Assembly: GCA_000091205.1 (NCBI GenBank)
Contig: AP006488.2
DNA: 64,000 bases
Source of the DNA: Cyanidioschyzon merolae
Lineage: Eukaryota
Direction: 5' to 3' (one strand)
Shown here: one piece after another, positions 12,073 to 64,000 of the stretch
Layout of the letters: each line of letters opens with the position of its first letter
Position numbering within the stretch: the stretch's first letter is position 1
Notes under the pieces: generated by a model
The model's input: only the letters and a program-made list of their open reading frames with translations
Databases searched by the model: none
Told to the model about the DNA's origin: nothing
Program-made: the position numbers and the translations under genes

Positions 12073-12999
12073 CGCTTGACGCTCCGGGTCCCTGGCACTT
12101 ACGGCCTGGGTTCACTCGGAAACCACGAGTTTTTGAAGGCGCAGTCCTGCGCGCTACCGCCTACGTTGAAGCTGGAGGAGCGTTGCGCGTATGGATGTTT
12201 GGTGTCGCCAGACTGGTATCTATCCATACTGGCACACAGTTCGACAGGTGCTCTTCATCGGGTACACAAGCTAAAGTTTGGGTTTCTTCCAATTGTCGCA
12301 AACGCAGGCTATTACGAGCTTATTCTGCAACTGCATCCGTTCGCTTTCTCTTCTTGCTGGATTTACATTCGCCGGTCTCTCCTTCCGTCAAGATGCGATG
12401 TCGGCGGTCGAGGGTTATTGACGGCAACGTACAAGTGCTGATTACGTCGCTCATCGCCGTGGTCAAAGCATCTCATGCACAGACGAAAAGTCGCGATCAA
12501 CGCCTCGCTTGCCATTTCCATTGTCTTGTTCGTGCCCAGCGTTGGTGCGCTCTTCACTGCCGCGACACATGGCGGTGTGTTCAGATGCTGTAGCATATCG
12601 TGCATACCGCTTCAACGAATGGCCGTCCCGTGGCGCCTGAACGCTTGCTTCATCGTTCGGTACATGCTGGTGAAGATTGCTGAAGGCGCTCTACGATACG
12701 CACTTCCGTTTCCGTAACTGGTGGTGTACCCTACACGCACACGGGCTTGATGTGGGCGATGCCCTCGGCGAGTACGGCGTCCGCTGCAAGCGCACGCTCG
12801 TCTATTCGATCGAGGAGTTCTGAAACGCAATATTCTCCATGATAAAACACGCACCGGGAGCAAGTTCCGGACTCGAGAAGACGCCATAAGGCCTCAACCC
12901 GTGTTGGCAGCCTTCGTGCCAAGCGGTAACGCGCTGTCCACTGTAAGCGATCGCAGCGTTGCCTGAGGTCTGAGTTCAAGATTCTTTTCCATGCAAGTG

Positions 13000-13500
13000 G
13001 AACAAAAGGAAGCCTCTTGGTGAACAGCCCGTACGAGATATCATGCTGCTGCTGTTGAATGCAGTTTCATCGATGTCCGCGAAGCGGTTAGATTCTCTCT
13101 TTCGAATGGACTCCATTATTTGACATGAAAAGCCCGGTAAAATTTTGGCAGGTACTTGTGAACAAGCCGACAAGAGACGAGGTCGATTTTCTGTTCCATT
13201 TCAATCCAGTTGGATGCGTTGCTGCGCCAACGAGATGACTTGAAACACAATGTTCTAAAACTTCAAGCACGGGTGATTTGAGCATGCTACGAGTAAGGAC
13301 GGGAAACGAATGGAGGCTTCTGCGAAGGCGATGGATAATGATATCGGTTATTTTATGAACCCTTGTTGGAGGGTGTCGCGAACCATCTTGGTGACGATGG
13401 CGAAACGAATTTCAGCGTGGAGAGTCGACGGATCCACTCCAAAAACATAACCGAGAATACTAAAATTACACACGAATCCGCAAGCACTTGTTCCAGCACC
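13000..13500. repeat. Old, decayed copy of repeat family R (tail portion)
   Basis: ttcgaatggactccattatttgacatgaaaag...cttgaaacacaatgttctaaaacttcaagcacgggtgatttgagcatgct aligns to the tail of copy 2 (29690-29800). Confidence 0.6.
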
Positions 13501-16500
13501 TCGAGCGTCGAGGATGGACATGTGAAAAAATTCGAAAAAAATCGAAACGTTTCAGCCTTATCAACCAGAAGGTGCAGTTGCCAATGATCAGCGGACGATT
13601 GCGCTCCGGACAGTGGCACAATCGACACCTGCACCACGTGGCCAAGTATCCGCATGTCGAAGGTGCGATTCCCAATACGTCTGCCTATGGACACTTCACC
13701 CATACTGGTCTGTGCGAACTCGAGCCCTGAGAGACCCGCACTCTGCCTATCTACATGGTCGCAACAATCGCCAAGAATAGGCTAGCGCCGCTCGTTCCAC
13801 TCAGAGCAGTGAATCCCGGAACATCTGTACCAGCAGGCGGTTTTTTGTCTAACAAAGAGAGTCTCTATGAAGGTTGGAGAATGGTCGCGGAAAGACTTTG
13901 TGTGCGCACTGCTAGCTTTGGAGAAATGGCCTCACTTGTGCAAATCAGCTATTCGTCGGTCAGCTAGTGAGTGATCCATCCCTCTGCTCGTTCATATCCC
14001 GAATGCAGTACACCAAAAACTGAACTTGCCAAACTCTAGGCCAACGACTCTTCCCTCGACAATCTATTCCAGTCCAAATGCTCGCACCGTAATGCCACCA
14101 AAGATGCAATTCCATGTAAACTTTCGGTAACGTTTCCTCGAGCGGAGCTGAAGAGACGCGGATGGATCAAGAAACAGGCACGCCTCAACAGGAGACCGCA
14201 CCATTTCGAACAATACACAACAGATTCTGTATAGAAATGCGAATACTTTTCGTGGAAGCGACGGGCGTTCATCTCGCATGATGACAAATTCATCGATGAC
14301 CAATGCGAGACTTGTATAGACGTTGCCGTAGAGGGGCAAGCCGCTGTTTGTGAAGAAGAGTCAAGCGAGCATTCCGACAACGTCAGTTCTCGCGACGATT
14401 CAATACTGTGGTCGCCCATGAATCGCAACACAGAAAGCAGCGCTCAGCACCTGATCCTCCGTTGAAACACGCCTCGAGTTCCATCTTTTCGTGTCCTTCT
14501 CCTGGGCAATATCTCTCAGTCCATCACTGATGTCGGTCGGGGGGCGGGGGCGCGGTTTGTAGCTGCTCTTCGTGCTAGCACACGCTCGCGGGTTCCATCC
14601 GCTTAAAGACGTCGTATAGGATTTCAAACGCCATTTTGATCTACCGGAAGAACAGACGAGTCGTACGTAACCGTGTTACAGAAGTTCTTCGACAAATCAC
14701 TCTTTGTGTTCACCAGAACCGAATCCATGCATTGATTCTCCGCTCATTGGCAGCTGAGAAGGGAAAGGTGCGCTCCGGTCTGGGAGCGGGCATGCGATGG
14801 CTAAGGCGACGAAAAAGCACTTGAGAAACAGTGCGTACATTCAAAGAGAAGACGAGTTTCAGGCACGTCGAGCGATCAGTGCGTCTGAGTGCCAAGAAAG
14901 AAAACGTATACAGCGTATCATGAAAAAATCCACGCTACCTAGCCGAGTAAGCGAAAAGGCAAAGATGTCGAAGCCGAAAGAGATGCAACCACACGTCAAA
15001 GCAGAGAAATAGCTTCCCTAAAAGATGACGAGTTCCGACGGGAACGGAGCACCTTCCGATCGGAAAGATCATTGTTGGACCGCTGTCAACGCCTCACCAA
15101 TAAATCATATCCATTGGGAGAATCCTTGAAGGCGTCAGGCACACGACGCCATTAGAGATCGCGTAGCTTCTTACGCGCACAAGTCTTGCCTATTTCGTCT
15201 TGTCTTGGTGCACCGCGCCACGCGACGCTTCGGTGGAGTTCCAGACACGGGCGGCAAGCTCTCGGCATTTCTCTGGATTTTTTTCGGATCAGACCTTCGT
15301 GCGAGAACACCACTTATGCTCCGGATAGAAGGCGCAACACGGCCTGTTCATAGGATTCCGGATGTACTCGCACGCTTCCCAGAATACCTTGACACATTAC
15401 CGCGCCACCTCGGCGATCTGAGGATCGACAACGCAGATGCCAGAAAGTACGGAACTACATTCAACATACCAAATTAGGTTCAGTGTCGAGCGCTTCACGA
15501 AACACCTCCCATGCGCATTGTATCCTCACGTCACATACGCGATAAAATACGGATGGATGGACGGGATGCTTAGCGGGTCGATGGAGGAAAATGACGAGCG
15601 ATTGGCGGCAAGAGATCGAGGTGGTAGCGAGTTCGGAACTGATGTGCCAGCGATAGGGAGTATCGCTTCAGGTAATCCAAGCTCGTCGTGTTGCCGTCAG
15701 CCTCGGGTCGGCGGATTTCGTACCGAAAAGGATCGTTGAGACGCAACGCCTACCTTGCTTGCATCTACGGTTCCATGTTTCGCTGAGCAGATCTTCCCAG
15801 AGCAGACCAGAGCAGATTCCATCAGACCGTCGCCTCGAATCCAAGCGCCGTAGCCTCCGAAATCGCCAAGTGGATGTGCTCCCAGCACCTCAGATGGAAG
15901 CCCAGTCGATCACCCGAGACGCTTCTGCTCTGTACTGTATCGCATCTTCAGTGAGCTACAGCTGGTCTGTCTGCGCGCAGCTATTCCGCATTCCACTATA
16001 GAGGCTAAGAGCATTGCAGAGCTCGTTCAAGGCTCCTCGTGTACGGAGAAGGAATGGAACGAATTCTACAGTGCCGATGGAGCTCGCTGGAATACAAATC
16101 CGCATGTACTTGTGAGATCGAGGCCCAAGTCAAGCGATGCGACTCGGTCTCAGCCAAAGAAGACATATCAAGAGAGAAACATCATGGTGGGCCCGGATCC
16201 CCAGGTCTGAGAATATCATGACGGTTGTCGTACCTCTGAATCGAGAGAACGTATCGAGGGATATGCAGGGAATGCAAACGAAGCTACTCAGCTTTTCCCG
16301 GGCTCGATTTCACCCAGGAATGGGCATGATGAATGCGAGAAGGCACACGAAAACTGGAAAGACGGCGTCAGGGACCAGACCCCGGTGCTCTGAGCACACT
16401 GTCCTGCAGACGAGGATGCTTTGTGTGCTGCATTCAGAGAGAACACGAGCGTCCAAATGGCGTATGTCGACGATCTCTGGCAGAAATACCTGCGGACGCA

Positions 16501-18076
16501 CGGGAATGGCCAACGATTTTCGGCGTACAGGGGCAGGACGCGAGTATTCAGCGACTTGTTTCATGAACAGGAAAAGAAATACGACGGATCGTTCGTCTCG
16601 TTGGGTGACGGTACCCTATGGCGCAAGACGTGCTGTGGCGCTCGTGGGCTGCACGCCTGCTCCTCTGACGAGAACGTAGAACGAGTGCAGGAAACGATTC
16701 TGTACGACGCCTGTCGATGAGTTACGGCCAACAGAGAAACGTCACGAGCACGAGTGCCCGTTGAAACAGCCAGAAACGAAGCGCTTGAAACAGAGCACGA
16801 TGGACGAGATGGGGTACGGCATGCCGAGCGGACGTCTGCTTACGAGGCAGTCAGATGCATGAGGCTCGCAATGTTGCGATACAGTCGCCAACAAGGTATG
16901 CAAGCGCTTTCTGTGCCAAGACTTGGACGCCTCAATCAACACCCGAAAAAGTCGAGTGCTTTCGGAGCGTCCTGCGGCTCTGTGTCAAGCGAAAATTCCT
17001 GGTAATCGTTTCGTATTCTTTGTCGGCATTGCGCTGAAATGCTGAAGACTCCGGATTGAAAAAACTCAGTGGCCAGGAGAGATGGCATTAGATTCTCGCC
17101 CGGAGCGAGGCACTGTTGTGGTCGAGCGCATCCATCGAGCGAGGTAGCAGCGTCGTATGTGTATACTGCGAACGTTTTACCTCGGCAGTGATGTCATGAT
17201 CATGGTGTTCCATTATTCGGCGTTACCAAGCATATGCGTCTCTTTACAGAGTCGTGAAATCCAATCCCTTGATCCTACTCCCAGCGGGACTTGCATGCCT
17301 AGTGGTCGGTTCGAAAACAGTCTCCCATGTCTCTTTGCGATCATGTCACAAGGATGAACCAATCTATGTGCAGGCGTTCATTCCGAAAGCAACAGTGTCG
17401 GTCCTTAGACGAATTTTCGAATCCGGTCGCCTCGTCCGATACAGCGCTGCGTATGCGCGACGATATTGATATCAGTGTTTGCATAAGAAAATCATATCAT
17501 TTCCACCACTTCCGGTTCAGGTATAAAACGTCGGTATGAGGAATCTGGTGCCCATCATCGCAAATGGTCGCGTAACGAGTTCCCGCCGACGACCTGAGGC
17601 ACAGTGCACGGGCCATGCTCCATCGGTGTCGCGTATTGCACCAGTTACGAGCACGAGAAAGCACTATCCTTCCATGACATGGTGGCAGTGCGCATGTGCC
17701 CGGGTCTGTTCTGACGCTTTCAGGGTCGCAACAGGAACGCAAGGCCCCGTCCCGTAATCCACCGACCGCAAAGCTGCCTTTGTTCCATAGTGGGAGCCTT
17801 ACAGGATCCAGTGCGTCCTGTCCGTGCCTCGGGGATATCTTGGAGCCGGACGGATCGGCCGTACCCGCAAGCGTCACAAAGCCAGCACGGAAACTGTACG
17901 AGGAATCCCATAGATTCTGCACCAGACCCGACACACTGGCATGAATCCGCTGACAGCATCAGTGTTCCCGAACAGCACAACAACGATCCGTTGGGTATTG
18001 TGTACCTCGACTGCACGGTTCACCTTGCAGCGAGCTCGCGCGTTTGTACCGAGTGTCTATCCGCTCGTCCCGCATC

Positions 18077-19865: not shown

Positions 19866-22377
19866 AGCACGACTGTCACAATGTACTACTTTGAAGTGCT
19901 CCCCAATCCAGCCACTTTAGCCGTGCTATGTGCACTCCCAGGATCCGGGATCGTCTAAAGTGGACCGAATGCCCCTTGACGAAATATCCTGCACCCAAAA
20001 CTCTGCTCTGCGGTGCTGCGCAAATGTCAGCCGCAGAGGCTACGAGCAGGAAACTCGCTCCATCATCGCCGCCGCTGGTACGCAGGATCGACTCAGATTC
20101 GTCGATCAGTTCAACGGTTGCTTTCTGATCGCGGCGGCGGCGGGCGCACGAGCGGTCTACGTGCAACGCTGCGATCAGCGAGATGTGACGATGCGGTGCT
20201 GCAGCGCGTCACATCTGCTGCAGCATGCGCATCACCGGAGGACGCTGGCCTACGGAAACGTTTTGTCCATGAAAAAGATCTGCTGCTGCATCGGATTGCA
20301 GCAGCTATTGTCTTTCACCAGGATTCTGTTCCACATCCAGTAGCGTGGCATCAAATGCTTTTCCGCGGTTCATAGCAGATATGTTCGAAGTGTGTTTATT
20401 TGGAGAAACAAAAGATCCATGGCACAGGAATAGACGTGGATGTCGGGCATCCTGGAGCGCTGTCATCGATGATCGCCAGAATGAAACGGAAAAACCCTCT
20501 TTTCGCCGACTATGGAGCGAAGGAGAGGAAGAGCAACAAGGGGAGATGCACGAGAAGCGGTGCTTGCACAGCGGGACGGTGACTAAACTGTAGAGGCACA
20601 GAGCGCACGAGTTCAAGGAATCCTTGCATTGGTGCGTTCAACAGTGGCAAAAGACGCATGGAGTTCATCAACCGAGACTGTAACGCCGCTGTGAATATCA
20701 TACAATGAGTGGCGTTGTAGACGAGACCCGAGGAGCTAGCGAAATCTAATTTTATTCGGCAAACTCTCAGGCTCGAGAGGTGCCTTGATAAACTGAAACC
20801 GAAAGCAGGCGGTCGGTCGAAAAAGTTGGGAGACGCCTGCGTATGGGTATTCATTTACCCACCATGGTTGTGGGATATTTTTCGTTCTATCAACGATGTC
20901 TTTCTCGTCGATGGACCATGGGCAAGCGTGTTTAGCTCATCTGGAGGTTCGCGGTTGCACAGGCCCGACCGGAGCCCGAGTTAGGGGGCCTCTTCTCGCT
21001 GGCGGACACGTCTACATAGCACCCGACGAGCAACGTCTAGCGGATGAGAGTCGTTGCCTTTTGGTAGCGCACAGCGAGCGATAAGCAGAGGAAGGTGCCA
21101 GTTTTACGCATGGACCTGAAACGGTGCTCGCGCAATGCTCGGAAAAGCCTCACAGAATATCGGCAAGTGTTCGTTCGTTCATTCAGCGTTTGGAATTGAT
21201 GAGGCTCTGGATACCTGTGTCTCCCAGTGGTTTCCAGAGAGTCGGGGCATGTGTTGTGTTCTTTCCCAGCCGTGTCTTCATCCTCGCGGATTCTGCCGAG
21301 GGGCGCGCTTCACGTCGGAGCGCGGTAGCTTCCGCGCCATCCCGGGCAACACGGAATTCGTTCTGCTGCTGTGGTGCATTCGCCGCTGGAGTGTCGACCT
21401 GTTCGGCACTGTGTTTCTTTCGTGCCGCTCTGTCTCGAAACGCTGTGTCCTGTGCGAGTCGGCAGCCTCCATCGACGGAATGTTGAGGTCGACTCTCGAG
21501 CGACGCTTCACGCACGGTCGTGCACTTGAAAAAACACTTCATTAACGTTCGGCGAAGCATCATGCTCGCATGCAACTCGTGAATAACATTTTGCCAACGA
21601 GAAATATCTCAGCGGTTTGCCGAAAGTATTTCTCATTTCGAAACGCGGTGGAATTGAGTGCTGCAGCCAGCCATATTGAAGCGCTGTAATGGGAACGCGC
21701 TTTCAGAGGCACGTGCACGGGCAAGAGAGCCTCTTCGGTGCTCTACTTCTGGTCGAGCACCAAGAGCACGACACTTGAGCGATGTGACGGCGGACGGATG
21801 ACACCCGTTGCATCCGGCCACGGTAACGCTACTGGATAAAAGTAGTGGCATGATGTAGACAGAATATGGAATTACAGCATACCCACCGCCATAGTGAGAT
21901 GCGGGACGCTTAGTACGGAAAAGTTACGCATGTACTACTTCCTGTGCCACAAGCAGACTTTCTGTCAAGGTACGAAACGCTGCGTACCTACATCTTTCTC
22001 CTGGACGCGGCGAACGAGGTATCTGCAGATGCGAGCGCACGCACTTCCATTGCAGCCAGCACATTATCGTCCATATTTGCGCGATCTATCCAAAATGAAG
22101 GCAATCTTCGCTGTCGCGTGTCTGTACTGAGAGGCAAAGAGCAAAGCCCAATTCCTAGGCGAGCACGCTTCTGGTATTTATGACGGCGACGGCAATCGTT
22201 TTGCAGAGATACCGACTTACGCGGGGGTATATCCGACGCCGCGGGGAATGGTTTAGACGAAATCGCGTGTACAGCAGAAACGTATCGATATCCTGGACCA
22301 CAGGCATTTGGGTGTGACAGCTGCTGCTGCTGCCGAGTCCAAAACGCCGCTATGTTGCAGTGAGGCTCCCAGCCACC

Positions 22378-24203: not shown

Positions 24204-25160
24204 CTCGATGCAATTACATCAGCATAGAACGGAAAAGGTTTTCCGATTCGTACGCACCTACCAAAGTTTAGGTTGTACCCGCGCTCATCAACACCAGAAT
24301 TTGCGGGCTTTTTCTGCGACAGCTTCCTTTGCCGCTCGCTTTTCTCCAGTTTAAAGCAAGGTAGTCGTATCTGCAGCCTAAGGCTCCAGTGTCAGCAGTC
24401 GGAGGATATACCGATGGCGCCAATAACGCCTAGCTTTCGTTGCTTCCCGCAGTTGTGAACGCGTTGCATGTGTAGAAGGTAGCTGCGATCTAGACACTTT
24501 GCTCGCCGCTATCCTATTCGCCTTTCGGTGAAACCTCGGTGCGTTCCGCAAAGCGATTACACGTGCCTGTGGTCGGTGTTGCTCACAAGTCCACAGCATG
24601 TTCTCCATCGAGCGCCGTACCATGGTGCATCGACGCTTGCTTCATTACTCGGTCCGTGCGCTTGACTGGCGAAGAAGGCTCTCTGCGGTGCTTGCCTCCT
24701 TGACAGCGTCCAGCGCGGTACCCGGACGGTCGTGGACTTGTTCTTGGCGATACCTCCCGCGCGTATGCGTTCCAGTGCATGGAAAAGGATACGCGTTTCC
24801 GTCCAATGGATAGCCTGTTGAACGCAATATGAACCCTGCTGAAACCATTACCCAAAGACAAGTCCAGGTAATAGAACGAATCGGGGGAAATTGTCGCGTG
24901 TACGCTCCTGTAGTGCGAAGCGGTTGCGTATTGCCCGCTGTAAGCGAATCGCTGTGGTGACGGAGGCTCAAGACCCTTTACCACACAAATCATTGAACGT
25001 GGAGTCTCTGGGAGCATATCCCATGAGAGGTAGCATGCTGCTGACGAATGCAGTTTCGTTGATAACCGCATATAGAAGAGGAGGAGTCGTTCAAACGGAA
25101 TCGAATCTTCGTGGTGACCATTTCATTCCAATTTTGACATGAAGATATCGAAAAGTCGTC
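24204..25160 (+). repeat. Young dispersed repeat, copy 1 (~0.95 kb); non-coding member of window-wide repeat family R
   Basis: Near-identical (few percent divergence by eye) to 28704-29646 and 59042-59877. Starts tcagcatagaacggaaaaggttttccgattcgtacgcacc. Internal ORFs accumulate nonsynonymous differences between copies. Confidence 0.85.
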
Positions 25161-25756
25161 AAGAAGTGACGCCGAGCATTCGTCCTCAAAACAGAGGCGC
25201 GAATCCCTTCGTCCATGAGTTGCCTTGAAATAGAAGGATCGCAAATTAGGTGAATGCGTGTTCTGAGCACACTACTCATAAAGAAAGGAATATAGTGGAT
25301 GCTTGTGCACATGAACAATTCCATCGTGTCTACGTTTTACCAACTGTTGTCTGAGTGCGTCGGGAGCCATTCTGATATCGGTGACGGAACCTATTCCAGA
25401 GACAACGCGTCAAAGAAGCCACTCCGACCACACGATCGAGAGTCCTAAGAACACATTCGAAGCCATAAACCCTTTTGTTGCACCTCAGACGTCCAGGCTG
25501 AACGTCAACCAAAACGAAATCGGGAACAAATACCGAAACACCTGAACACAGGGATCCAATCAACCTTCCTGTTTTGCTCTAACAATGAGAGCGCGTCGAC
25601 TGCGAGCTTCGCAGGCAGCGTCTCCTCGAATGGCGAGGCGTTCATCGCGCCTCTGAACGCAAGCTCTATGCCAGGCGTCCGGGAAGAGCCTCCTTCATAG
25701 GCGTTCTGCCGGACACGCTCCGAAGGTACTCACAGGCAGCACATCATAGGTTTCTG

Positions 25757-36275: not shown

Positions 36276-36917
36276 TCACCGTTTGCTGAATGCATCAGTG
36301 ATTCGTCCAGTGGAGCGATCATTGCGTGCAACGACGGAAAACCCGCCTTCGATGGGGCTCAACCACGGAGAGCGCGGAGGAATGAAAAGCAGCTCGACAC
36401 CAATAGCATCAGCAACAGCTCCAAAGTAACAGGAGTGGTCAAATGCTATGTTGTCCAACAGAATGAAGTCGCCAGGCATCAGGGGGCAAGTCTTTGATGA
36501 TTCGACAAAGTGGTTGGAGCAGTTGGATAGGCGTTCTCTGCCTGCGAAACTGAGGTCGCCGAATATATCCTCAAAAGCTTGAATAAAAGTATGATATCCT
36601 CGTTCTACTCGAGTTCCATCGTACGTACAACGGGTTTCCTAATCCGCGAATATCCATATACGTTCCGATCGGTTCTCCCGATGGAATTCTTATCAACTGA
36701 AAAAAAACAAACCGACGCCCCTCTGCTTCATACTGATAGTGACGTTCCAAGAACTTTGTTGTCTTTGAGCTTTCAGTAGAAGACGGCCGTGCGTGAAAAC
36801 GGTAATATTTTTGCGACGATATCCAAGTGTTTTCAGAGCCGAACGAACAAGCTTTTGAGAAACAGAAATGCCAGTGGTGGCTACTACCGTCGCTTTTGCT
36901 CTCCGTAAGGTGATCAA
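36276..36917 (-). mobile_element. Degenerate Tc1/mariner/IS630-type (DDE_3) transposase pseudogene. HTH fragment 36693-36917; C-terminal DDE fragment 36276-36479.
   Basis: FILLDNIAFDHSCYFGAVADAIGVELLFIPPRSPWLSPIEGGFSVV matches the LDNAxxH ... PPYSPDLNPIE block of Tc1-like transposases. Upstream fragment SVSQKLVRSALKTLGYRRKNITVF is HTH-like. Broken by frameshifts. The region is AT-richer than its surroundings. Confidence 0.6.
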
Positions 36918-38883
36918 CCAGTCTCTTTTTTACGATTTACTGCGAGCAGTCTCTGAAAATATTGGTAGCTGGAATAGAGCACAAGTACTTGTTTCTTTCA
37001 GTGTGCCTCAACCATGTCATTCCAGTTGTGTTGCTGACCTGAGGGACGAATGCAATCCCCCTCGCATTTTTCACTAAAGAATATATCCTATATTCAATTC
37101 ATCTGTGACCTCTACGGTACATTGAATGGTCATTTCGATCTCCTGCTCTACACCGAATAGGGGGTGAATCAAAATTGAGTTGAAAAACGATCATCATGGC
37201 GCATACATTGTTTCGCGATTGTGCGTTGGATTCCATGCCTGCACACGGAAACGTACATGTCACTGAACTTTTTGGACCCAGGATCTCCAGGTTCAGTCCT
37301 GAGCGCTGTCGGCAGAACGCCGCGAACACCAGCTGTGCGACTCCTTCGGCTGGTGCGGCGACCAGTTGATGATTTTTCTTTGGGCTGCAGGACGGATGGG
37401 TCGAAGCTGACGCTGCAGCGAACCAGCATTCTCGGGTACATCCCGTTGGCAGGCCCTGGCATCATCCACGCGTTCCATTTCTTGAAGCGAGGGGATCGAT
37501 GACTCCGAGCCGAGGCTCCTGGGATGCAGGGGAAGCATTGGTGATGCTTCCGCTTTCACTGCACATGATCGATATGCCAGCGAAATGATAAGCACGTCCA
37601 TGAAACTGCTCTGAAGCACTGATATGAACGAAGGTCGCCTCCTATTCTGAAAGGATAAAAACTTTGAAATTTTTGCGCACCGCTATGTGTACAATTCGAG
37701 TCCCTTGCTCGCTACTCGTTGTACGAACGGGACGCGGTTTGCAGCGTAGGTCTGGAGCCTGCATGAATATCAACGCGTCATGATAGCGCGTCCACGCGGA
37801 GACTTAGCCGAATACCAATCCAGGTTTTGAGATCTGGATATCCTTCGATATATATGGTAACCATATGAACTGTGCGATCCGTGGCATCGGGTCGCGAAAA
37901 ATAAATCAATCGAAAAAGAGCCCCGTGGCTACTTCTGGAATGTATCTACGCACGGTCGCTTCGTTTCAGCAGCCACGTTTTCTCGCAACGAGCACAAGTT
38001 CCAGCTTGCACGCCTCAGCTGCGTTCGACTCAGCGCTCTCTGGGAAGCACACACTCGCGTTTTTCGCACGGTCTGCAAGACCCCGAGGCATCCGCGGAAC
38101 CCTGCGGCGTCCGCGAGTGCTCACAGGCGCTCTGAGCTCGGAAGAGCGGATCGTATCCCGGTGAAGAAGATGCCTGCTTCAGGCACGGAACCAAAATTGA
38201 TATTGTGGAGATGATTCCCGCACAAGAAGCACAGCCACTCATGCTGAATGCCCGACAACGGGCGGGGATCATGGAATACGATGCATGTTGACCGTGGACG
38301 AGCGGTTGAACGTAACGCGCCCTTGTGTGCTCCCAGCCGTGAACCCGTCATCGCTCACGTATCGGTATCGATTTCCATAGGTTCCCCGCATAGCCACCGA
38401 ATGCGATCCACTAAACCATTTCATATATCCGAAATGTAGGTCGTCTCGGGTGGCTGAATTCCTTGCGAGCACGGACACGGCACATACAGCATGCACCAAT
38501 ACAACGTTTATGATGCCTGCCCCCTCGAAGACACATAGGAAAGCACATGCTGCACCCTTCAATATAACATGCGTCCTGTTTGCTTCCTCGCAGAGTCAAG
38601 CAGAGCTCATACTGCACGCACCTTCGCGATGTATTCGACGCCAGCGAAAGTTAAGCGTTCGGGCCGTGCCAAACAAGACCAGCAAAGTCATCGCTGCGAG
38701 CAATTTCATAGTGCATTGATGATTACATTTATCATGATGATTCTAAAGAGCGATACACTTGGTACTGCCGCCGATCCGACTCGAGAAATTTCACCCGCCA
38801 CTACAATAGATATTGATCCACAGAGTACATCCTCCAGGAATGCCCGCTAAAGTGCGCAAGTACATGCATCCGAGCTAGCGTCA

Positions 38884-40188
38884 TCACTGCCCATCCCAGT
38901 CGTGCAGCTCCGGTGGGAGCGGCCGATCGACCTCGCTGATCTTTACCGGCATGCCGGTCTGGTAGCTTTGCCGAGCAGCCATGGCAATGACTACCGGCGC
39001 TCGGCCGTCGAAACCGGTGCACTGAATGGGTGTCCCATCGAGCAATGAGCTGCAAAAGGCATCCATTTCCCGAATGAACGAGTCCGTATATCGCTCCATA
39101 AAAAAATGCATAGGCAAGTCGCGCTGAATATGGTGAGCGGTGCTGACAATCGCTGTGTTCGGATAGCTGTTGTTGATAGAAATCGACCCAGCACTACCGA
39201 ACACCTCGCAGCGCTGATCGTATCCGTAGACTGCACTGCGGGAGTTGTCGATCGTGCCGATCGTACGGTTCCGAAACTTCAACATTACCACAGACGTGTC
39301 GACGTCTCCGTACTGAGCAATCTCAGGTGATATGCGGACAGCTCCATACGCGAAGACCTCGTCGACTTCATTGCCAATAAGAAAGCGAGCCATATCAAAA
39401 TCGTGGATTGCGCAGTCCATCCAGATTCCCCCTGAGGTTGCGGAGTAGTGGGCCGGTGGTGGCTCCGGATCACGGCTCACGATGTGGAAAATATGGGTTT
39501 CGCCGATCTCACCGGTCTCGATCGCTTTGCGAACTCGCATGTAGTTGGTATCGAAACGACGATTGAAGCCGACCTGAAGCTTGACGCCAGCCTTGCGGAC
39601 TGCGGTAAGGGCCTCGTCGATCCTGCCCAAATCGATGTCGATCGGTTTCTCGACGAAAATGTGTTTTCCTGCCTGAGCTGCCTCAATCATCTGCCGCGTA
39701 TGCTGCGTACTTGCTGAGCAAATGCATACTGCGTCCACATTCGGGTCGTCCAGGAGCTGGTGATAGTCAAAGTAGGGTTTGCAGCCAGCGGCCAGGGAGC
39801 AGCGCTCCGCGAGCTCCCGGGTGCCGGAGGCCACCCCGCACAAGTTGGCGCGTCGAAGTCTGAAAGCGATGTTCTCAGCGTGGACTTGGCCGATCCGCCC
39901 CGCACCGATGACCGCTACATTCACCTTATCACGAGCAACCACACCTTTCTTAGCGGAAGGTCCAGACGCGGGCGAAGCTGACGCTGGAGCAGGCGACGCC
40001 GACTGCGAGCGCAGCCCGCGCAGTGCCGAACAACCGGAGCGGCGCCGCGGAAACGCTCTCGTCCTCGAACGAAACACATAGCGGTTGTTTTCTCCCGTAA
40101 ACCTCAAGCAAAATCCTGCACATTGAGAGTTGCAGTCGTCCCTGGGAACAATATTCAACGAAACAAACGCCATGAGTACAGAGTTCAT
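38884..40188 (-). CDS. Gfo/Idh/MocA-family NAD(P)-dependent oxidoreductase, myo-inositol 2-dehydrogenase (IolG)-like, with ~80-aa Ser/Arg/Ala-rich N-terminal extension
   Basis: Rossmann VNVAVIGAGRIGQVH, VDAVCICSASTQHTRQMIEAAQAGKHIFVEKP, KLQVGFNRRFD and GEIGETHIFHIVSRDP are colinear with IolG. ATG at 40186-40188. Confidence 0.8.
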   Translation of the reverse strand: MNSVLMAFVSLNIVPRDDCNSQCAGFCLRFTGENNRYVFRSRTRAFPRRRSGCSALRGLRSQSASPAPASASPASGPSAKKGVVARDKVNVAVIGAGRIGQVHAENIAFRLRRANLCGVASGTRELAERCSLAAGCKPYFDYHQLLDDPNVDAVCICSASTQHTRQMIEAAQAGKHIFVEKPIDIDLGRIDEALTAVRKAGVKLQVGFNRRFDTNYMRVRKAIETGEIGETHIFHIVSRDPEPPPAHYSATSGGIWMDCAIHDFDMARFLIGNEVDEVFAYGAVRISPEIAQYGDVDTSVVMLKFRNRTIGTIDNSRSAVYGYDQRCEVFGSAGSISINNSYPNTAIVSTAHHIQRDLPMHFFMERYTDSFIREMDAFCSSLLDGTPIQCTGFDGRAPVVIAMAARQSYQTGMPVKISEVDRPLPPELHDWDGQ

Positions 40189-43439: not shown

Positions 43440-43800
43440 GAGCACGCTGTTCCATTGAATAGAGAGGATTTCTGGAACGCGATGTTTTCCATGATGAAAC
43501 AAATACCAGAAGGAAAATTCAGACTGGAGACAAAGTCGATCAATTTCGAGCCGTCTGCGCCCCGTGTGTGTCATGCGTTGGCGCGCGCTCTCTCCACTCG
43601 GAGCGATCGTTGCGAGGACTCAAGTCCGAGTTTAGGACCCTTTGCCATTCGAACAGAAGACACGGGAACCTCTCGGAGCATAAACATTGATCGAAATACT
43701 GCAGGTGACGAATGGCGATTCGTCGACGGCCACAGCCCCAGGCAGAAATGTCTTTCGAGTGAAATCCATTGTTTGACATGTGAAGTTCATTGAGTTTTCG
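43440..43800. repeat. Old, decayed copy of repeat family R
   Basis: ccagaaggaaaattcagactggagacaaagtcgatcaatttcgagcc ... gagtgaaatccattgtttgacatgtgaag is homologous to 7940-8260 and to the young copies. Confidence 0.5.
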
Positions 43801-44845
43801 ACACGAGCTTTTGAACGATTCGTCAAGGAACACGCCGAGAGTTCTTCCTCATCAATCCAATGGCGTGAGTTTTTGTTGCGCCTTCGAGTTGCTTTGTGGC
43901 AGCTTGACCGAGTATTTGAAGAATGCGTAATTTGCACGTGTCGCATGCAAGGAAAAGAGAAGAGTGGCGGTTTGTAGGTATGACTCGATTGATGTTATCT
44001 GTTTGTTTACGAATCCCTGATCGCGGGCCTTGTGAATCATGTCGATGACGATGTCGTGACAAATCCCGGCGGCAAAGTATCGAATGAGCCATTCCAAAAA
44101 GTCCACCGCAAATCCGAAACCACTGCGTAGATCCATATGCCACTACTAGTGCAGTTTAGATTCACAGGTTGCACATAAATGAAAATATCGGAATATAATC
44201 GAAAAGCAGGAAGAGAACGAGCTGTTCAGCGTTCCGATTTGATTCTGAAACAGGACTAGTACCAGTGGGTTGTCTGGTTTCCGAAAGCAAACATATACTC
44301 GGGAAGTTTTCGTTGGATTTATCGATCTCACGCCGCAAAAAAGATTCGCGGGGAAACATTGTTGTACGCTTGCAGATAGTGAAACATTTAGTCCGTTATC
44401 AGAAAGCGTTTGGGAGAACGCGGACCAGGACTTTTGTAGGCAACGCTTAGAGATGAGGCTCGCCTTAAAACAGCATGGGCAGCCTATCGAGCTGCTGCTT
44501 CCCTGATGATGTCGTCGGCACCACAGTGAATATCCACGGTGCGCTCATCAGAAGGAGACCTGGTGGAATGAACGAGCGTGGGATCTTGACGCAAGACCCA
44601 CTTGGAGCAAACGGAAACTTGGAGCTGCTGGGTAGAAGCTAATATGCGTTCTTGCTACGGGTAGCTTTCGTCCAACTGCGATCATTTATTTTGATCTGTT
44701 TACCCACAAACCAGTTAAACTTATGCTCTGTGAAACGAACAACATTTCACGACTATGACGTGTACATATTCACCCTTTCACAGACGCTTCCCAGCCTCTT
44801 TCGACCGGTCGCCTGCTATCGGTTTTCGTTTCTCCAGGCACTCCT

Positions 44846-45094
44846 CTAGCCGTAGAGCGTGTACCACAAGTTGGATCGCGTCAGCTCCTCGGGCCTCGTC
44901 TTCAGCACCGATCCTCGTATGATATTGACGGCAGCATTGAAATTCCGTTTCACGAGCTCATTGCGTGTATTGCCTCTGGCTGAACTTGCTAATGCAGGGA
45001 CTGCTAAATCAAGCAATCCTCTCTGCCGCTGCAGTCTCGATATCATCGCGTCAGACATGAAAACCTCTCCTCGCCTATCGCCCGCCTTCTTCAT
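44846..45094 (-). pseudogene. TnpB/Fanzor-like RuvC-III remnant, copy B (catalytic D replaced by N). The homologous flank extends roughly 44840-45300.
   Basis: ELVKRNFNAAVNIIRGSVLKTRPEELTRSNL aligns to copy A, GFVNRDFNASINIRSCAVLKTRPSKLTQSNF. Flanking DNA at 45170-45260 aligns to 36120-36200. Confidence 0.4.
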
Positions 45095-45795
45095 CTCCGT
45101 TACGCGCTCTTATTCGCTCGATGATCGGTGAGACAAGGATTTTTCCGTTTTTTTGCCGGCAGCCGGCGACACCGAGCCTCCAAGATCCTCGACTTCCATG
45201 TCCATAAATTTCCCTTGGATTTCTTATTTTTGAAAACTTACGCACTTCGAAAGCATCTGCCACGAACCAGGAAAAATCATCTGATGACACACACCGAGAG
45301 GTGGAACGCAACTGAGGTGTAAAACGATAACAACCCAATGCGACGTTGCAGATGCCTAGTCGCAGCGGTGACACGGGCGCCCGCGCATTCCTCCCCAAGT
45401 CCTGGCCAGGTGTGTTGCTCGCCGAGACAGTGCGAAGCAGCTGCGTAAAGGTTCAACGGAGACCGCACGAGTTCCTCGGAGGACACGAACCAAACCCATA
45501 ACACGCTGAGTAAGCGTGCTAGTACATCGCAGAGCTTGATCGCCATCGAGCAAAGCAGCAAACTTTGCGCGCCCTGAGCAAGTCGATAACCGTAACGCAG
45601 CCCCTCCAGGTGGAAAGACGCGCTCGTTCGGGCGTCAGAGAAAACCAACCATAGTCTATCGTAGCGCTCCGTCGTTCAATTAGATGTTTTGTTACGGAAA
45701 GTTGTTATGCATTCACTTGTAACCTGCGACATTCGGCTGCAGTAACCCGTCCTTGCGAGATAGTTTGCTACCCGAAGCCCGTCCCGAGGTGTACG

Positions 45796-46941: not shown

Positions 46942-49900
46942 CTGCTGTGTGCCACATGGCGTCGAGAACGATGGGTATGGAAAGCAACGCATGGCAGCGT
47001 TCTTGTCAGCTGAAGATGACGTCGCGGGTCACGTTTCTCCAGTCGTAAAGGGCAACCGCTGGATCCAGCGCCTGCCTCACATTCTATGATGAAAGCAGCT
47101 GAAGCGAATGTGGCGTTTCATATGCACTCCCTGGGATCTGATTCGCTTTCTCGATGCACTCATGTTGCAGCTGGAATATGATCCCATGCTTCCAACAGAA
47201 TACCGTTCTCCTCAATGGAGCCGCTTCGCTCCAGAGGTGTGCATTCATTCAGTTCGGCCCAAAATGGTGTGTTCAGCACGACGCCTTCTTGCAGGGACCG
47301 GTGCAGCGCTCTCGTACGAGCATTTAGTTCTGGTTCGGAACACGGTACAGCCAGCTCGATGCGAAACCTGAACGAGTGCATTCAGCCTGCGTTAAAGCAA
47401 GCGCATGCGAATACATATGGACTAGTAATGCGTTAAATGGAGGAGCACTCGCTCTCTTGGACCACCGTGCTGCTTTGAAGAAACAAGACAGGTTCTGTGG
47501 CATCCTTTTCTGACGCATGCACAACGATATTGCCCACAAGTTGCAGCAACCGAAGGTGTATCGGCACCGAAATAGATGGACCCCAGAAGCGATTGGTAAC
47601 GCCCGTGCCAATCGAACCCCGGCGAGACTGAGGCTCACGCAATGGATCTTTGTAGGCATGCTTAGTGATACAGGTCAATGGAGCACCATGACTGACTGGA
47701 AAATGGCAAACAAAACCGTTCGCTTTTTGTGTATGTGGCGCCCAAAATACGCTGGACCAGGGGCCCGTACCATACCAGCGAAATACTCGGGGCGAGAATC
47801 CAATGCCCCCTGTCCTGGGCTGTGATTTGTTCTCATCGAAAGTCTCTCCACGAGCCGACGCTCTCTGAATGGTACGGCAACGCCGTTCTGTCTCCGTGCA
47901 GCGACCGCACCGGCGCTATAGGCGCCATTGCGGATGCTCTCGGCAGGCATTTGGCACACAATAGGACGTTTAAAATGACCAGTATATCCGAGAAGAAGTA
48001 TAGGTAATGTAACTTGGAGGTAGGGGGTTTGATGGATACTTCACCGCGTACTGAAAAAAAATAAGAAAAGAAAAAGCACACAATCGGCGAACGCTGGCCT
48101 AACTTAAAGTTTTGTCAAGTAAGAAAACGAAACTCTCCAGCGTTTGAGCTCAATCTCCGCAGTGCATACAACACACTGCGCACGAACAAACGACTCACGG
48201 GAAATAGCTGGACGCTCCGTATGTATGAGACACTTTCAGATATTGATCGGTGCGTTGAAGCGCGGGTGTGGAGAACGTGCTTCCGCGCATTGCGGCTGAT
48301 GGAATCACATCATCGTGATGCGCTCTCTTGCGACTGCCTCGCCATTTGACGTTCGTTCAGCTTACCGTTCACCTTTTCGTGCGCCAGTTATTGTTTCACC
48401 TTCTTCTTCTTTACATGTTTCAGCGTTCATGCCCGCTCGTGATACGCATATGTGGTCCCGAACGCATCGATGGAAATCGTGCAACATCGATTCCCGCACT
48501 TGTTCTGGGTGCTCTTGTGGAAAGAGCAATCGTGCATCCCCGGCGAGTTACTGAACATCCAGCACCATACGCTGCCGCTCAACGAAGCGAAACCTAGGCC
48601 ATTTTGGTTTCCATTTCATAGCACAGTCTGACGAATGGAAGCTTCTTGCTTCAGTACAGCAGTCAATGTTGGCGAGCCTGGCGCGTTCACATAAACCACT
48701 GCCAAGTATCGTCGGCATGGGGCACTTTCGGTTTATGTGATCCACGAACGAAGCCTGCAATGCCTCCCCATTTGCTCGAGATGGTGCATCGGGGGTCGAA
48801 GAAGGTCCTGGCGCCGTCGTTCCACATGTTGGCACGCCTCCTGGCGTCAAAGAAGCCCGCCTCCAGATAATACCGAGTTCTGGAAAAGTTGAGCAGCTTC
48901 ATTAGCTCTCCATGCAGATCTTGGGTTCCGTACTCATGGTTAAGAGGTACGCCCAGAAACATGACGACCTTGAACCCGGAATCCAAAACGTCTACCAAAA
49001 CTTTTTCTCCTATATCCTGAACTGTTGACATTGAGATTTATTGCTCGTCTTGGGCATGGGGTTCACAATCTGAAAGCAGACAGATATTTCAAGGGTCGCC
49101 ACTGTCTATTTTCACCTTTTCCCGCTTGCTCCCCCAAACCTGGAAACCCTGAAGGATCTCCATCCCGCTATCCCCACAAACTGTTTCGAATGCCTCTGAG
49201 TTGTAAGCAGAGATCACCCGTTGCTCACCTAGTTGGGTATAAAGTTCAGTACAGATTTGTCTACGATGTTGAGATCTACCCTAGTCTGACGTACACGGAG
49301 CATGTTGAGTGATAGCTCGAGGAGACGACGGGCACTCTAATGCAGGCAGGGAGTCTGCATTGCCCCGGAGGACTCTGTTCACTTGCCCAAATCGCAGTGC
49401 AGATAGGAACACTGTTTCAACCATCCTTTGAATATGACCTCATTTGGCCCGAGGCCGAGACCAACACCATGCCCTCGGACGATTTGAAGCGATCGCCACG
49501 CTCGTTGCGGCATCTCTTCCAAACTCGCTACCTCTTCGATCTCCTGCGCCAGCAGCTCGTCACCCGCCTCCACTGACACTCGGAGACTACTCTCCATGAC
49601 TCCCATTTTTCTTCGCCAGTAAGGAGATCGGAAAACGCCCACAGAGTGCGCTCCACGCAGCGCTCGAGCTAGAACCGCATTTGGGTTTTCTAGTCAGTTT
49701 GATACTGTTTGACACCTGCTTTGTGGATGTACCACTCGCAGACTGGGCACAGCAATGCGTCAACAAGTTCGAGGAAGCGCGTGCGCGAAGCTCTGATCCG
49801 ACGATCAGACCATTTTTGCATCCTCTGTCCAGAGCGTCAGCCGCTGCATGAGGGTATTATGGAAGGATTCCAGTGGAATGTGCACAGCTGGCTGCCCTGC

Positions 49901-59041: not shown

Positions 59042-59877
59042 AGCATAGAACGGAAAAGGTTTTCCGATTCGTACGCACCTACCAAAGTTTAGGTTGTATC
59101 CGCGCTCATCAACACCAGAATTTGCGGGCTTTTTCTGCGACAGCTTCCTTTGCCGCTCGCTTATCTCCAGTTTAAAGCAAGGTAGTCTTATCTGTCGCCT
59201 AAGGCTCCAGTGTCAGCAGTCGGAGGATATACCGATGCCGCCAATAACGCCTAGCTTTCGTTGCTTCCCGCAGTTGTGAACGCGTTGCATGTGTAGACGG
59301 TAGCTGCGATCTAGACACTTTGCTCGCCGCTATCCTATTCGCCTTTCGGGGAAACCTCGGTGCGCTCCGCAAAGCGATTACACGTGCCTGTGGTCGGTGT
59401 TGCTCACGAGTCCACAGCATGTTCTCCATCGAGCGCCGTACCATGGTGCATCGACGCTTGCTTCATTACTCGGTCCGTGCGCTTGACTGGTGAAGAAGGC
59501 TCTCTGCGGTGCTTGCCTCCTCGACAGCGTCCAGCGCGGTACCCGGACGGTCGTGGACTTGTTCTTGGCGATACCTCCCGCGCGTACGCGTTCCAGTGCA
59601 TGGAAAAGGGCACGCGTTTCCGTCCAATGGATAGCCTGTTGCACGCAATATGAACCCTGCTGAAACCATTACCCAAAGACAAGTCCAGGTAATAGAACGA
59701 ATCGGGGGAAATTGTCGCGTGTACGCTCCTGTAGTGCGAAGCGGTTGCGTATTGCCCGCTGTAAACGAATCGCTGTGGTGACGGAGGCTCAAGACCCTTT
59801 ACCACACAAATCATTGAACGTGGAGTCTCTGGGAGCATATTCCATGAGTGGTAGCATGCTGCTGACGAATGCAGTTT
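59042..59877 (+). repeat. Young dispersed repeat, copy 3, ~1.1 kb downstream of the CHO2-like stop. It continues as a more diverged tail to ~60300.
   Basis: Near-identical to copies 1 and 2 up to ~59877, then diverges. The downstream sequence carries the older family motifs (ttcgaa.gga.tcgat.atttga, gagttgccttgaaat...gatcgaaaacttga). Confidence 0.85.
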
Positions 59878-60695
59878 TGTCGACGCCCGCAACGAAGGCA
59901 GAAATCGTCATTCGAACGTGATCGATTATTCGAAAGGACAAGGTCAGCGAACTTTCGGCATGAGCTCATGAACAAGCTTTCAAAGGACGACCTCGTCAAG
60001 TATTCTGCCTCGTTTTTCCAGCGGTGCCAAAATGACGCCCGACGAGTTGCCTTGAAATCCAGAGATCGAAAACTTGAAGAACGCATGCTTGCATTGTTCT
60101 ACTCGATGGCGAACGCGAAAAATGGATGCAGGAACGTATGCATCGGATCGTGATAGAGAATACTTTACGAATTCTTGTTCGAAGGCGTCGCGAATGATCT
60201 TGCTTCCGGTTAGGTATAGGTTTTGAACGACCAAGCGCCCAACGACGCACTTGGCGAATACGACCAAAGTCCGAAAACTACGTATGAATCGAAAGGTCCA
60301 TTTTGCTGCACTTTGAATCTAGAAGCTGTTCCCATGAGAAACCACTCGATATGCAGGGATCGAGCGAGCATCTCAACGTTCCATGGTACTCCAACAGATC
60401 CAAGCACGCTTGAGCCCAGCGGCCATAAGCAGCACCAGACCGAGAGCAGTGTGCTCTGCCCGCGCAACGATCCAAAAATGTACAGTTTACAGAACCCTGT
60501 CTCGGAAATGCGTCCATCAAGCGAACCTCACGACATTCAACACCTGTGCAACCGCCAACGTTCGCTCGTCCATGAAATATACACGTATCATTCGTTCGAC
60601 TCGGATGTAGTTTGCATCACTTGGGAGCCGCTGTCTGGTTGGCGCTACCGTCCGATTGTCTGCGCCAACGAGGACTAACCTGGTCGTTCGATTAC

Positions 60696-62003: not shown

Positions 62004-63019
62004 GACTTTGAACTAAAAAACAATGAGAAAGCGTTGATCGTAGAAAACACACAGACGCGAAACCTCCGCTCCAGCGAAATAACTGTCGCGAATATATACC
62101 CAAAATCCTGGTACGTTTATCTGCTGGCGCTGGTGCTGCTGGTGCTTGTGCTGCCAACGGATTTTGGCGCTGCTGAATGCACGCGCGCCAAGGCGCCTCG
62201 CCCACGCGCAGATCTGAACGCTGCGGTTGAAATGCCCGGCGCAGCAGCAGCGCAGATTCGAGCATTGCGCGGGAAAGCTGCAGAGCGCGCGCGCGCGCGC
62301 AAGCATCGTACGGTGCACCCGTATACAGCGACGCAATGGACAGCGTTGTTGAATCCAGGTGCGTACATGATATCGTTTGGGTTTCATCCTATTATCGTGA
62401 ACGAGAGGTTTGAAGGCCTCCTTGTGGGAGCTTCCTGTTTCCGGTTTCATATCTGCTGCTGTCATTCCGCCAGTCTCTGCTTTACTACTAGTTCCGTTAT
62501 CAGCTGTTGAAAAAACGCGGTTACCGCAGCATCATATCGTCCTGATTTTGCTACTTCCGGTTGTTGTTTATGCATCTCATGCCGAGACGGTAGTTAGGAT
62601 CTAGATTCGGTTGCAGTTCGCGTCCTGTATGAGAACAGCCTCGGTGGAATCAATGCAGCGGCGATTCTTGACAGTGGTTAAATGTTCCTGGGTAGGCGGC
62701 GCACATCCTCCATCGAGCGCTGCAGTCCAGCGCCCGAACGCGTGCTTCATCGCTCGGGTTGCGTCCTGGACGGGAATGGAAGGCCCGGGTCGATGCCCTC
62801 CTATGATTCCGCGTATGGTGCCGTACGCTCTGGGTAGGGACTTCATTTTCAGGGTGCCCTCGGCGAGTAATTTTTCAGCTGCACTCGCAAGCACATAATA
62901 TCCCATCCGATGCGAAATTTTTTGAAGGCGATGTTGTTTATGATGAAACCTGAACCCCAAATGAAAATCTAGCCTGGAGATCAGATCGAGAAACGTCGTT
63001 TCGTCGACGCTTCATTACT

Positions 63020-63420
63020 GTCGAGTGGTCTTGCACGCTCCATTGAGCGCGATCACAGCAAGAAAAACGTCCGAGTCCGATTCCTTTCGCCATCCTCAAA
63101 CGAGAGACCGGAGCCTCTGAAAGCATATGCTGTGAGAGGCATCAAGCCGCTGCGGGTGCCGTTTCTTAGATACACCACGAAGAGAGGAGAATATATCTTT
63201 CGGACGGAATCGATGATTTGACGTGACATGGTCTGTGAATTGCGGCATGGGCGTGTGAGCAAGTCGCAAACGGACGACGTCAAGAGCTTGTCGTCAACGA
63301 TCCAGCGACGCGAGTTGCGAGGCGCACTATTCACCTCGATATAGAGAGATCGAAAACTTGAAGTATGCATGATTCGGGCATTCTTCACCAAAGAATAGGA
63401 GACAAGTGGATGTTTTTACC
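63020..63420. repeat. Old, decayed copy of repeat family R
   Basis: ctttcggacggaatcgatgatttgacgtgacatgg ... gatatagagagatcgaaaacttgaagtatgcatg. Confidence 0.5.
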
Positions 63421-64000
63421 TATGAACTCCATCCCATTGTATATAACTTTAGAATGCTTGTTCAAGGCCGTCACGACTCATGCTGATTCTGGTGATGGAG
63501 CGAATTCGAGATGCGCAGAGTCAGTGCAGCTATTCCCAAAAAAGACCGGGAGCCTTGGAGTATCGACGAGTGAATCCATACATCCATATTTCTGCACTAC
63601 AAATATCGAAGTCGTACACCTAAAACGCACGCGAAAATCGACAGGCAGGAACAGAGCGAGCAGGCTAGTTTTCCATCGTAATCTGACACGAATGTCGCGG
63701 TCATGACCTGCACGTCAATGCGACCAACGAACCTCCGTTTTTTTTTTCGTAGAAAACGGGCGTTCATCATCGTAGATCCGCCTGGATGATTCGCATCACG
63801 TCCACTACGGGAAGCGTGTTATGCGGATGCACGGAGCGGTCCCCGACGCATGTGCCCGTGCCCTAGCGTTGATCCTCATGCAATGCGACAACTCCAGATG
63901 GAGGGGTTTGCAAGTCACGCCACACAGCGGTGATGCACACCGCTGATCCTCTGTAACCGGGAAACTCCGGGACGGCAACCCGCGTGATGTACTCGCTCGA

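Follow-up and report, generated by a model that had tools for sequence, protein, structure and literature searches.

Fanzor1 genes lying inside Mariner/Tc1 elements, autonomous ones included, have already been published (PMC3627910; PMC10530073; PMC10711439), among them the Mariner/Tc1-Fanzor1 associations of Jiang et al. 2023 (PMC10530073) and the Mariner-type elements PUl-1 and PUl-2 of Pythium ultimum and PGv-1 of Phaeocystis globosa virus (PMC3627910). PUl-1/PUl-2 and PGv-1 share one architecture, in which a transposase gene is followed on the same strand by a Fanzor1 gene and both are enclosed by one TA-flanked pair of terminal inverted repeats (TIRs), about 3.2-3.8 kb in all. In Cyanidioschyzon merolae, Bao and Jurka (2013; Mobile DNA 4:12, PMC3627910) defined the Fanzor1 element CMe-1A, a 3169-bp consensus representing ~150 copies that are ~80% identical to it. 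As published, CMe-1A has neither a transposase nor reported TIRs, its target-site duplication was undetermined and it was assigned to no class; another repeat, TE-N2_CMe, makes up its 5′ 635 bp, and the same authors found Fanzor elements to be often chimeric (PMC3627910). Here we describe a locus in a 64,000-nucleotide stretch of C. merolae DNA (contig AP006488.2; "the window"), which is part of the 536,163-bp chromosome 6 of strain 10D (locus tags CMF), seven of its long open reading frames (ORFs) being identical to BAM79456-BAM79469. Positions 35677-37190 of the window are, with high confidence, one dead copy, shortened by internal deletion, of a DNA transposon with two genes, which encoded a Tc1/mariner-type transposase with a DDE_3 domain and a Fanzor1 protein. 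The element type is already known, and the window copy, called copy A here as the window's DDE-bearing copy, is a relic: it is incapable of acting alone, with a broken transposase and a Fanzor gene reduced to ~50 N-terminal and ~90 C-terminal codons.

The first-pass annotation of this stretch had reported three fragments, helix-turn-helix (HTH), DDE and TnpB-like, in that order on the minus strand, and had raised the possibility of a single composite element in place of two nested insertions. The layout was borne out, and the transposase remnant is real, but its extent had been put too small: the pseudogene runs from an ATG at 37122 to a stop at 36276-36278 and is interrupted by four or more frameshifts and several in-frame stops. 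In tblastn searches with the family consensus described below and five intact homologues, residues 1-176 fell in frame -2, residues 133-164 in frame -1 and residues 64-280 in frame -3. The proposed DDE fragment, ORF 36276-36479 on the minus strand, matched Pfam DDE_3 (PF13358) with E=8.1e-7 and 29.4 bits, above the curated cutoff of 28.6 bits; a 210-aa translation with stops removed gave E=2.1e-7, and the five-copy consensus covered profile positions 4-136 of 146 with E=1.1e-20. The proposed HTH fragment, ORF 36693-36917 on the same strand, was weakly HTH-like when taken alone (HTH_33, E=0.04, or E=0.019 with the consensus; HTH_Tnp_Tc3_2, E=0.15); its whole length aligned to the part of intact homologues that holds the second HTH, these homologues themselves bearing weak HTH_Tnp_Tc3_2 and HTH_33 matches (e.g., L019). 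All three catalytic motifs are kept in copy A (FFSVDKN, LLDNIAFDHS and SPIEGGF), spread over different reading frames. The DDE segment is present once within the window and has no match in CMe-1A positions 1-785.

Among described transposases, that of PUl-1 is 33% identical to the window remnant over 60 aa around the DDE C-terminus (E=7e-8) and 27% identical to the family consensus over 207 aa, as a distant relative. Bacterial IS630 transposases, which belong to the same catalytic domain family (Pfam DDE_3), have a similar D-D-E spacing; the window element differs from them in residing in a eukaryote and in its pairing with a Fanzor1 gene, and we know of no bacterial IS630 element with Fanzor or TnpB. 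The transposase stop (AFSKR*/AFSTR*) does not vary in position among any of the C. merolae copies; it precedes that of intact relatives by ~20-25 codons, so the family founder may already have had a shortened transposase C-terminus.

The TnpB-like peptides of copy A and of two further copies in the window, B and C, gave no Pfam match even at E≤10, and their identity is therefore drawn from the published CMe-1A consensus, which, like the 734-aa CMe-1 protein, was taken from the supplement of PMC3627910. Against that protein, the fragment at 35730-35981 on the minus strand proved to be a Fanzor1 remnant, aligning to CMe-1 residues 640-726 with 45% identity (E=8e-16); at the DNA level, positions 35935-35740 were 70% identical to CMe-1A 2881-3076 (blastn, E=2e-25). 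A second blastn match, CMe-1A 869-1062 to window positions 36199-35987, covers the leader and the N-terminal remnant. The Fanzor middle, roughly aa 50-625, is missing, and with it RuvC-I and RuvC-II. Of the full Fanzor1 motif, D-X(125,275)-[TS][TS]-X-X-[C4 zinc finger]-X(5,50)-RD (PMC3627910), copy A retains the terminal RD alone.

Copy A and CMe-1A occur in the same genome and are homologous, at 64-70% nucleotide identity, in the leader, the Fanzor remnants, the 3′ end and the 5′ 75 nt; their ages appear similar, each being ~80% identical to its consensus. CMe-1A positions 1-785 (TE-N2_CMe plus ~150 bp) are absent from copy A, in which 790-862, 869-1062 and 2881-3076 are the matching segments, and copy A carries a ~850-bp transposase pseudogene where CMe-1A passes directly from 862 to 869. 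On sequence grounds, given the shared 5′ ~75 nt (790-862) and leader (869-905), CMe-1A from ~790 onward looks like the two-gene element minus its transposase ORF. Copy A is best regarded as belonging to a sister subfamily, and as the form parental to CMe-1A. The CMe-1A consensus itself seems to be compound, with the 5′ end of the two-gene element at ~786-790 (TA followed by TAGTTTTTCAG...) and the upstream ~785 bp (TE-N2_CMe plus ~150 bp) resembling a separate module. Window positions 5958-6085 and 47847-48046 correspond to CMe-1A 91-216 and 60-257, in the TE-N2_CMe part, with 71-79% identity, and are not collinear with a Fanzor remnant.

Within the window, ~540 bp of copy A (35675-36200) recur, ~66% identical, in copy B (44722-45351) and copy C (20283-20889). 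These two ~0.6-kb copies have no transposase, begin at the same sequence as the family 5′ end and match CMe-1A 786-969/1019 and 2840/2855-3084. The window holds five CMe-1 Fanzor remnants altogether, and four of the five are without a transposase; these transposase-less remnants appear to be transposase-deleted derivatives.

Further copies with a DDE segment came from searches of metagenome contigs. Queried with the raw window translation, a protein search yielded a single relative, P0001, encoded on L001, a Logan contig of 1016 bp. L001 is ~71% identical to window positions 36946-36164 and then continues into Fanzor sequence, with the leader joined to CMe-1A 2738-2971, unlike the deletion of copy A. 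When JGI metagenome contigs were scanned with a DDE alignment of these two sequences, 13 loci were recovered. Two of them, L002 and L003, match the window at 99.3% identity over 10-12.6 kb and represent its locus in a natural population. The remaining loci match the window across the element only (~37156 to 35740, ~70% identity) and have unrelated flanks; each also carries Fanzor residues ~605/640-733, which lie 100-300 bp downstream of the DDE remnant and on its strand. The genes beside them share ≥90% clusters with proteins that strain 10D encodes on other chromosomes (CMA010C and an aminoacylase, ornithine carbamoyltransferase, and SIN3), and a second protein search added three copies with different neighbours (L020, L021 and L022). 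In total, eight distinct non-syntenic loci were recovered; DDE and the Fanzor C-terminus occur together on the same strand in all seven that could be assessed, the eighth contig ending too early to judge, and an arrangement in which the two are always separate, the outcome that would have spoken against a composite element, is contradicted.

Five representative copies are nearly equidistant from one another (64-71% pairwise identity, ~80% to their consensus), a star-like pattern consistent with an ancient burst coeval with CMe-1A. The junction between DDE and leader is common to copy A, L001 and all other copies, while the Fanzor breakpoints fall into groups: L004, L006, L010 and L020 share one, with the leader joined to about aa 603-612, and copy A and L013, probably also L022, share another. 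Two different Fanzor deletions behind one DDE-to-leader junction speak for an undeleted ancestor with both DDE and Fanzor in this lineage. The copies are thus dispersed, carry the same internal deletions and sit in unrelated flanks, as amplified derivatives of a non-autonomous kind do.

Rebuilding a consensus from paralogues, an approach put forward in the first-pass annotation, also gave access to complete elements: with the five-copy consensus transposase as query, 110 homologues were found, many of them intact at ~290-300 aa. We examined five intact relatives, L015 (JGI metagenome), L016/L017 (NCBI GCA_013573275.1 and Logan), L019 (Logan), L023 (Logan) and L025/L026 (ENA and JGI). Each has a DDE_3 gene of 293-298 aa and, 30-230 nt behind it in the same orientation, an ORF of 619-669 aa that has no Pfam match and is a full-length homologue of CMe-1 Fanzor (~600-700 residues aligned, 28-39% identity, E 6e-150 to 1e-67). 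The C. merolae consensus aligns end to end with the intact transposases at 36-43% identity, and the catalytic spacing in the three intact elements checked is D-76-D-34-E. These closest intact relatives form a previously unnamed set, distinct from PUl-1. In all three elements whose ends were checked (L015, L016 and L019), a single pair of 28-34-bp TIRs, reading CACTC..TGAAAAATGTTACAC immediately after TA, encloses both genes with TA on both flanks, over ~3.1-3.4 kb. The intact two-gene elements and copy A are alike in gene order and spacing, and the 3′ ends of the C. merolae copies resemble the intact TIR; they differ in that the former are complete, whereas decay and internal deletion mark the C. 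merolae copies. The single composite element is accordingly supported by seven of seven assessable other copies and by five of five intact relatives, and the other outcome that the first-pass annotation had named as contrary to it, TIRs that assign the two genes to different elements, is contradicted by the single TIR pair in three of three relatives. Two of the intact elements, L023 (1264-4652, 7993-10065) and L025 (168-4788, 8173-10882), lie amid genes typical of giant viruses, encoding ERCC4, RNase III, DNA methylases, GIY-YIG, a phage-type Collar protein, eIF4E and an NAD-dependent DNA ligase, a setting that echoes the virus-borne PGv-1 (PMC3627910).

The ends of the C. merolae element were compared with those of its relatives. 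All copies begin with GTTT(T)CAACTC at ~37188-37190 in window numbering, with unrelated sequence upstream. The family 5′ consensus (~75 nt) aligned to CMe-1A 790-862 with a score of 65 against a null maximum of 42, and copy A alone gave p=0.0003. Resemblance of the 5′ end to the intact-relative TIR was marginal, at p=0.02-0.28 for the CMe-1A version (778-827). The copy A 3′ end coincides with the end of the CMe-1A consensus, and its resemblance to the intact TIR had empirical p values, against random window segments, of 0.004-0.023, compared with 0.0008 for L006 and 0.007 for L010; in other copies the 3′ resemblance was not significant. Copy A is abutted at its 3′ end by a TA, possibly one half of a target-site duplication, and copy B seemingly has TA at both ends. 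In the window, the 15-mer TIR core TGAAAAATGTTACAC had no matches with up to 3 mismatches allowed, and an inverted-repeat scan of 34800-38500 found short internal pairs and none at the element ends. A TIR candidate pairing 36925-36948 with 35677-35697 was rejected, the homology among copies extending ~240 bp further upstream and placing that site inside the element. A 17-nt inverted pair, 35758-35774 and 36773-36789 (94% complementary), between the Fanzor 3′ part and the transposase HTH part, is probably a chance occurrence. Copy A is also short of 22 nt (GCTGTATGGAATCGGATGCTTT-like) at ~37150, between the 5′ end and the ATG, that are present in all other DDE-bearing copies. No Rfam family scored above threshold at 34000-39000, and a tRNA scan of the region was also empty. 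The features of copy A and the related repeats are collected in Table 1.

Table 1. Features of copy A and of other repeats, in window coordinates.
Feature	Position	Strand	Evidence or remark
Whole repeat unit, degenerate Tc1/mariner(DDE_3)-Fanzor1, ~1.5 kb, very probably one element	35677..37190	-	Core conserved in five distinct copies; unrelated flanks
5′ terminal region and 5′ untranslated region (UTR) before the transposase ATG	37123..37190	-	Homology to CMe-1A 790-862
Transposase pseudogene, IS630/Tc1-mariner type, DDE_3	36276..37122	-	tblastn with family consensus and five intact homologues; Pfam
HTH fragment, second helix-turn-helix region	36693..36917	-	Weak Pfam match; aligns to consensus residues 64-130
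First catalytic Asp segment (FFSVDKNSIGR...YGYSR)	36629..36724	-	tblastn high-scoring segment pair in frame -1, consensus residues 133-164, 56% identity
DDE C-terminal fragment, second Asp (LLDNIAFDHS) and Glu (SPIEGGF)	36276..36479	-	Pfam DDE_3
Spacer, transposase stop to Fanzor ATG	36157..36275	-	Last ~43 nt (36157-36199) correspond to CMe-1A leader 869-905
Fanzor1 N-terminal remnant, MDMKVGDPTGP... (CMe-1: MEKEVEDPGGP...)	35987..36156	-	blastn CMe-1A 906-1062, 64%, E=1e-14
Fanzor1 C-terminal remnant with RuvC-III motif (VNRDFNASINI) and stop	35730..35990	-	tblastn CMe-1 640-726, 45%, E=8e-16
3′ TIR homologue	35677..35705	-	Plus strand TGCTCAGTAAAACAAAAAAAGTTCCACAG; aligns to the intact-relative TIR, CACTCAGACCAATGAAAAATGTTACAC after TA
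TA dinucleotide abutting the 3′ end	35675..35676	.	Read from sequence; 5′ flank 37191-37192 is GA
Other CMe-1 Fanzor remnant	15609-17003	+	CMe-1 residues 217-699
Other CMe-1 Fanzor remnant	48185-49022	-	CMe-1 residues 418-698
Other CMe-1 Fanzor remnant	44781-45205	-	Mini copy
Other CMe-1 Fanzor remnant	20628-20831	+	Mini copy
~700-bp repeat copies	43506-44263, 7973-8731, 12853-13547, 62960-63689, 29457-30029, 59793-60382, 24972-25574		

It is possible, although we hold this somewhat short of probable, that the ancestor of the whole CMe-1 family was a Tc1/mariner-type transposon of the DD34E kind with Fanzor1 as its second gene, CMe-1A being the transposase-deleted form, the ~1.5-kb copies the Fanzor-deleted form and the ~0.6-kb minis the form that has lost both. 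The two-gene ancestor of copy A, on the high-confidence reading given at the outset, would have had, in order, a 5′ end with a short UTR, the transposase gene, a ~120-nt spacer, the Fanzor1 gene, and a 3′ UTR with TIR. Its transposase would have been a protein of ~280-300 aa of the IS630/Tc1-mariner DD34E type, with DDE_3 and N-terminal HTH motifs, and its Fanzor1 a TnpB-like RNA-guided nuclease of ~730 aa. Judging from the intact relatives and from what is established for Tc1/mariner elements, the transposase would have bound the ~30-bp TIRs and moved the element by cut-and-paste into TA sites. Fanzor1, going by what is known of TnpB and Fanzor proteins, would have been directed to the DNA it cut by a guide RNA from the element's 3′ end; on the parallel of TnpB, such cutting would probably have favoured retention or spread of the element. 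Copy A, L004 and similar copies have lost the Fanzor middle, and B and C have lost both genes, whereas CMe-1A appears to have lost the transposase.

Several observations weigh against reading copy A as the relic of a two-gene transposon. The paralogues were taken not from the 10D assembly but from metagenome contigs of hot-spring populations resembling C. merolae, and the family consensus, built from only five copies, still contains frameshifts. No copy with both genes full-length was seen among the Cyanidiales sequences searched. The link between the two genes runs one way, in that most CMe-1 remnants and the CMe-1A consensus are without a transposase. Two Fanzor deletion variants have modules in common with the DDE-less minis B and C, which share variant 2, a pattern that implies recombination between members of the family and allows more than one order of events. 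In the DDE-bearing copies, a 5′ TIR reached no significance with intact-element, PUl-1/PUl-2 or C. merolae 3′ TIR queries, and in copy A a TA duplication is not demonstrable, the 3′ flank being TA and the 5′ flank GA, a dinucleotide that carries little information in any case.

Some of these same observations would suit a chimera specific to this lineage, in which a single fusion event in Cyanidioschyzon, by nested insertion or recombination, brought together a Tc1/mariner-type element and a CMe-1 fragment that already carried its deletion, and the fused non-autonomous unit then spread, with no autonomous two-gene ancestor. Every Cyanidiales copy found has a truncated Fanzor, variant 2 is shared with copies that lack DDE, and chimerism is frequent among Fanzor elements (PMC3627910). 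Such an origin is nevertheless unlikely, given that two different Fanzor deletions with the same DDE-to-leader junction point to an undeleted ancestor, and that in distant intact relatives the homologous genes show matching order, orientation and spacing inside a single pair of TIRs, an arrangement that chance would hardly have created again. A good deal less probable still is that a mariner-like relic and a CMe-1 fragment came to lie side by side by chance as two unrelated insertions: CMe-1 remnants are dense, with five in 64 kb, most of them without DDE, but the idea is contradicted by an identical junction at seven or more other non-syntenic loci and by conservation of the gene pair in intact elements elsewhere. 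Least credible of all is a domesticated or functional gene, such as one for a short Fanzor- or transposase-derived host protein, for which the common position of the transposase stop and the retention of the locus in the 99.3% identical natural population might be cited, and which is contradicted by the multiple transposase frameshifts and in-frame stops, by a Fanzor without RuvC-I, RuvC-II and most of the protein, and by copies at 64-71% pairwise identity with different lesions, an identity of 99.3% being in any case too close to inform on selection.

Copy A lies between an SmD1-like gene (34961-35416, minus strand; LSM domain, E=2.8e-11) on one side and a myo-inositol dehydrogenase gene (38884-40188) on the other. 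The Pfam match of the SmD1-like gene is broken by ~35 residues, probably an intron, a rare feature in C. merolae, that was translated in frame. A second dispersed repeat of ~700 bp, with seven copies in the window that are 58-66% identical, has no match in CMe-1A and no obvious ORF; it also occurs near DDE-Fanzor copies elsewhere, at 10552-10943 in L004/L014 and at ~7895-8998 in L006/L008. The HSP70-like "oxygen regulated protein" gene at 25757-28540 belongs to a JGI/IMG cluster some members of which are labelled "transposase-like protein," probably an annotation artefact.

In the searchable literature, we found no paper linking the C. merolae Fanzor family to a DDE transposase. The DDE link reported here places CMe-1, with its ~150 copies unclassified since 2013, among the Tc1/mariner-type Fanzor1 elements and explains its mosaic derivatives, in a model alga with a very compact genome. 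The window copy is inert, and the general association of mariner-type elements with Fanzor1 is already published. If the common descent proposed above is correct, the fact that all three forms keep the 5′ ~75 nt, the Fanzor 3′ end and the TIR would suggest that these ends, perhaps including the guide-RNA region, are needed in cis, and the intact relatives in giant-virus-like contigs fit viral entry into Cyanidiales. The conserved ~3.2-kb two-gene element with shared TIRs that occurs elsewhere, giant-virus-like contigs included, offers a compact natural system for the role of Fanzor1 in a cut-and-paste transposon.

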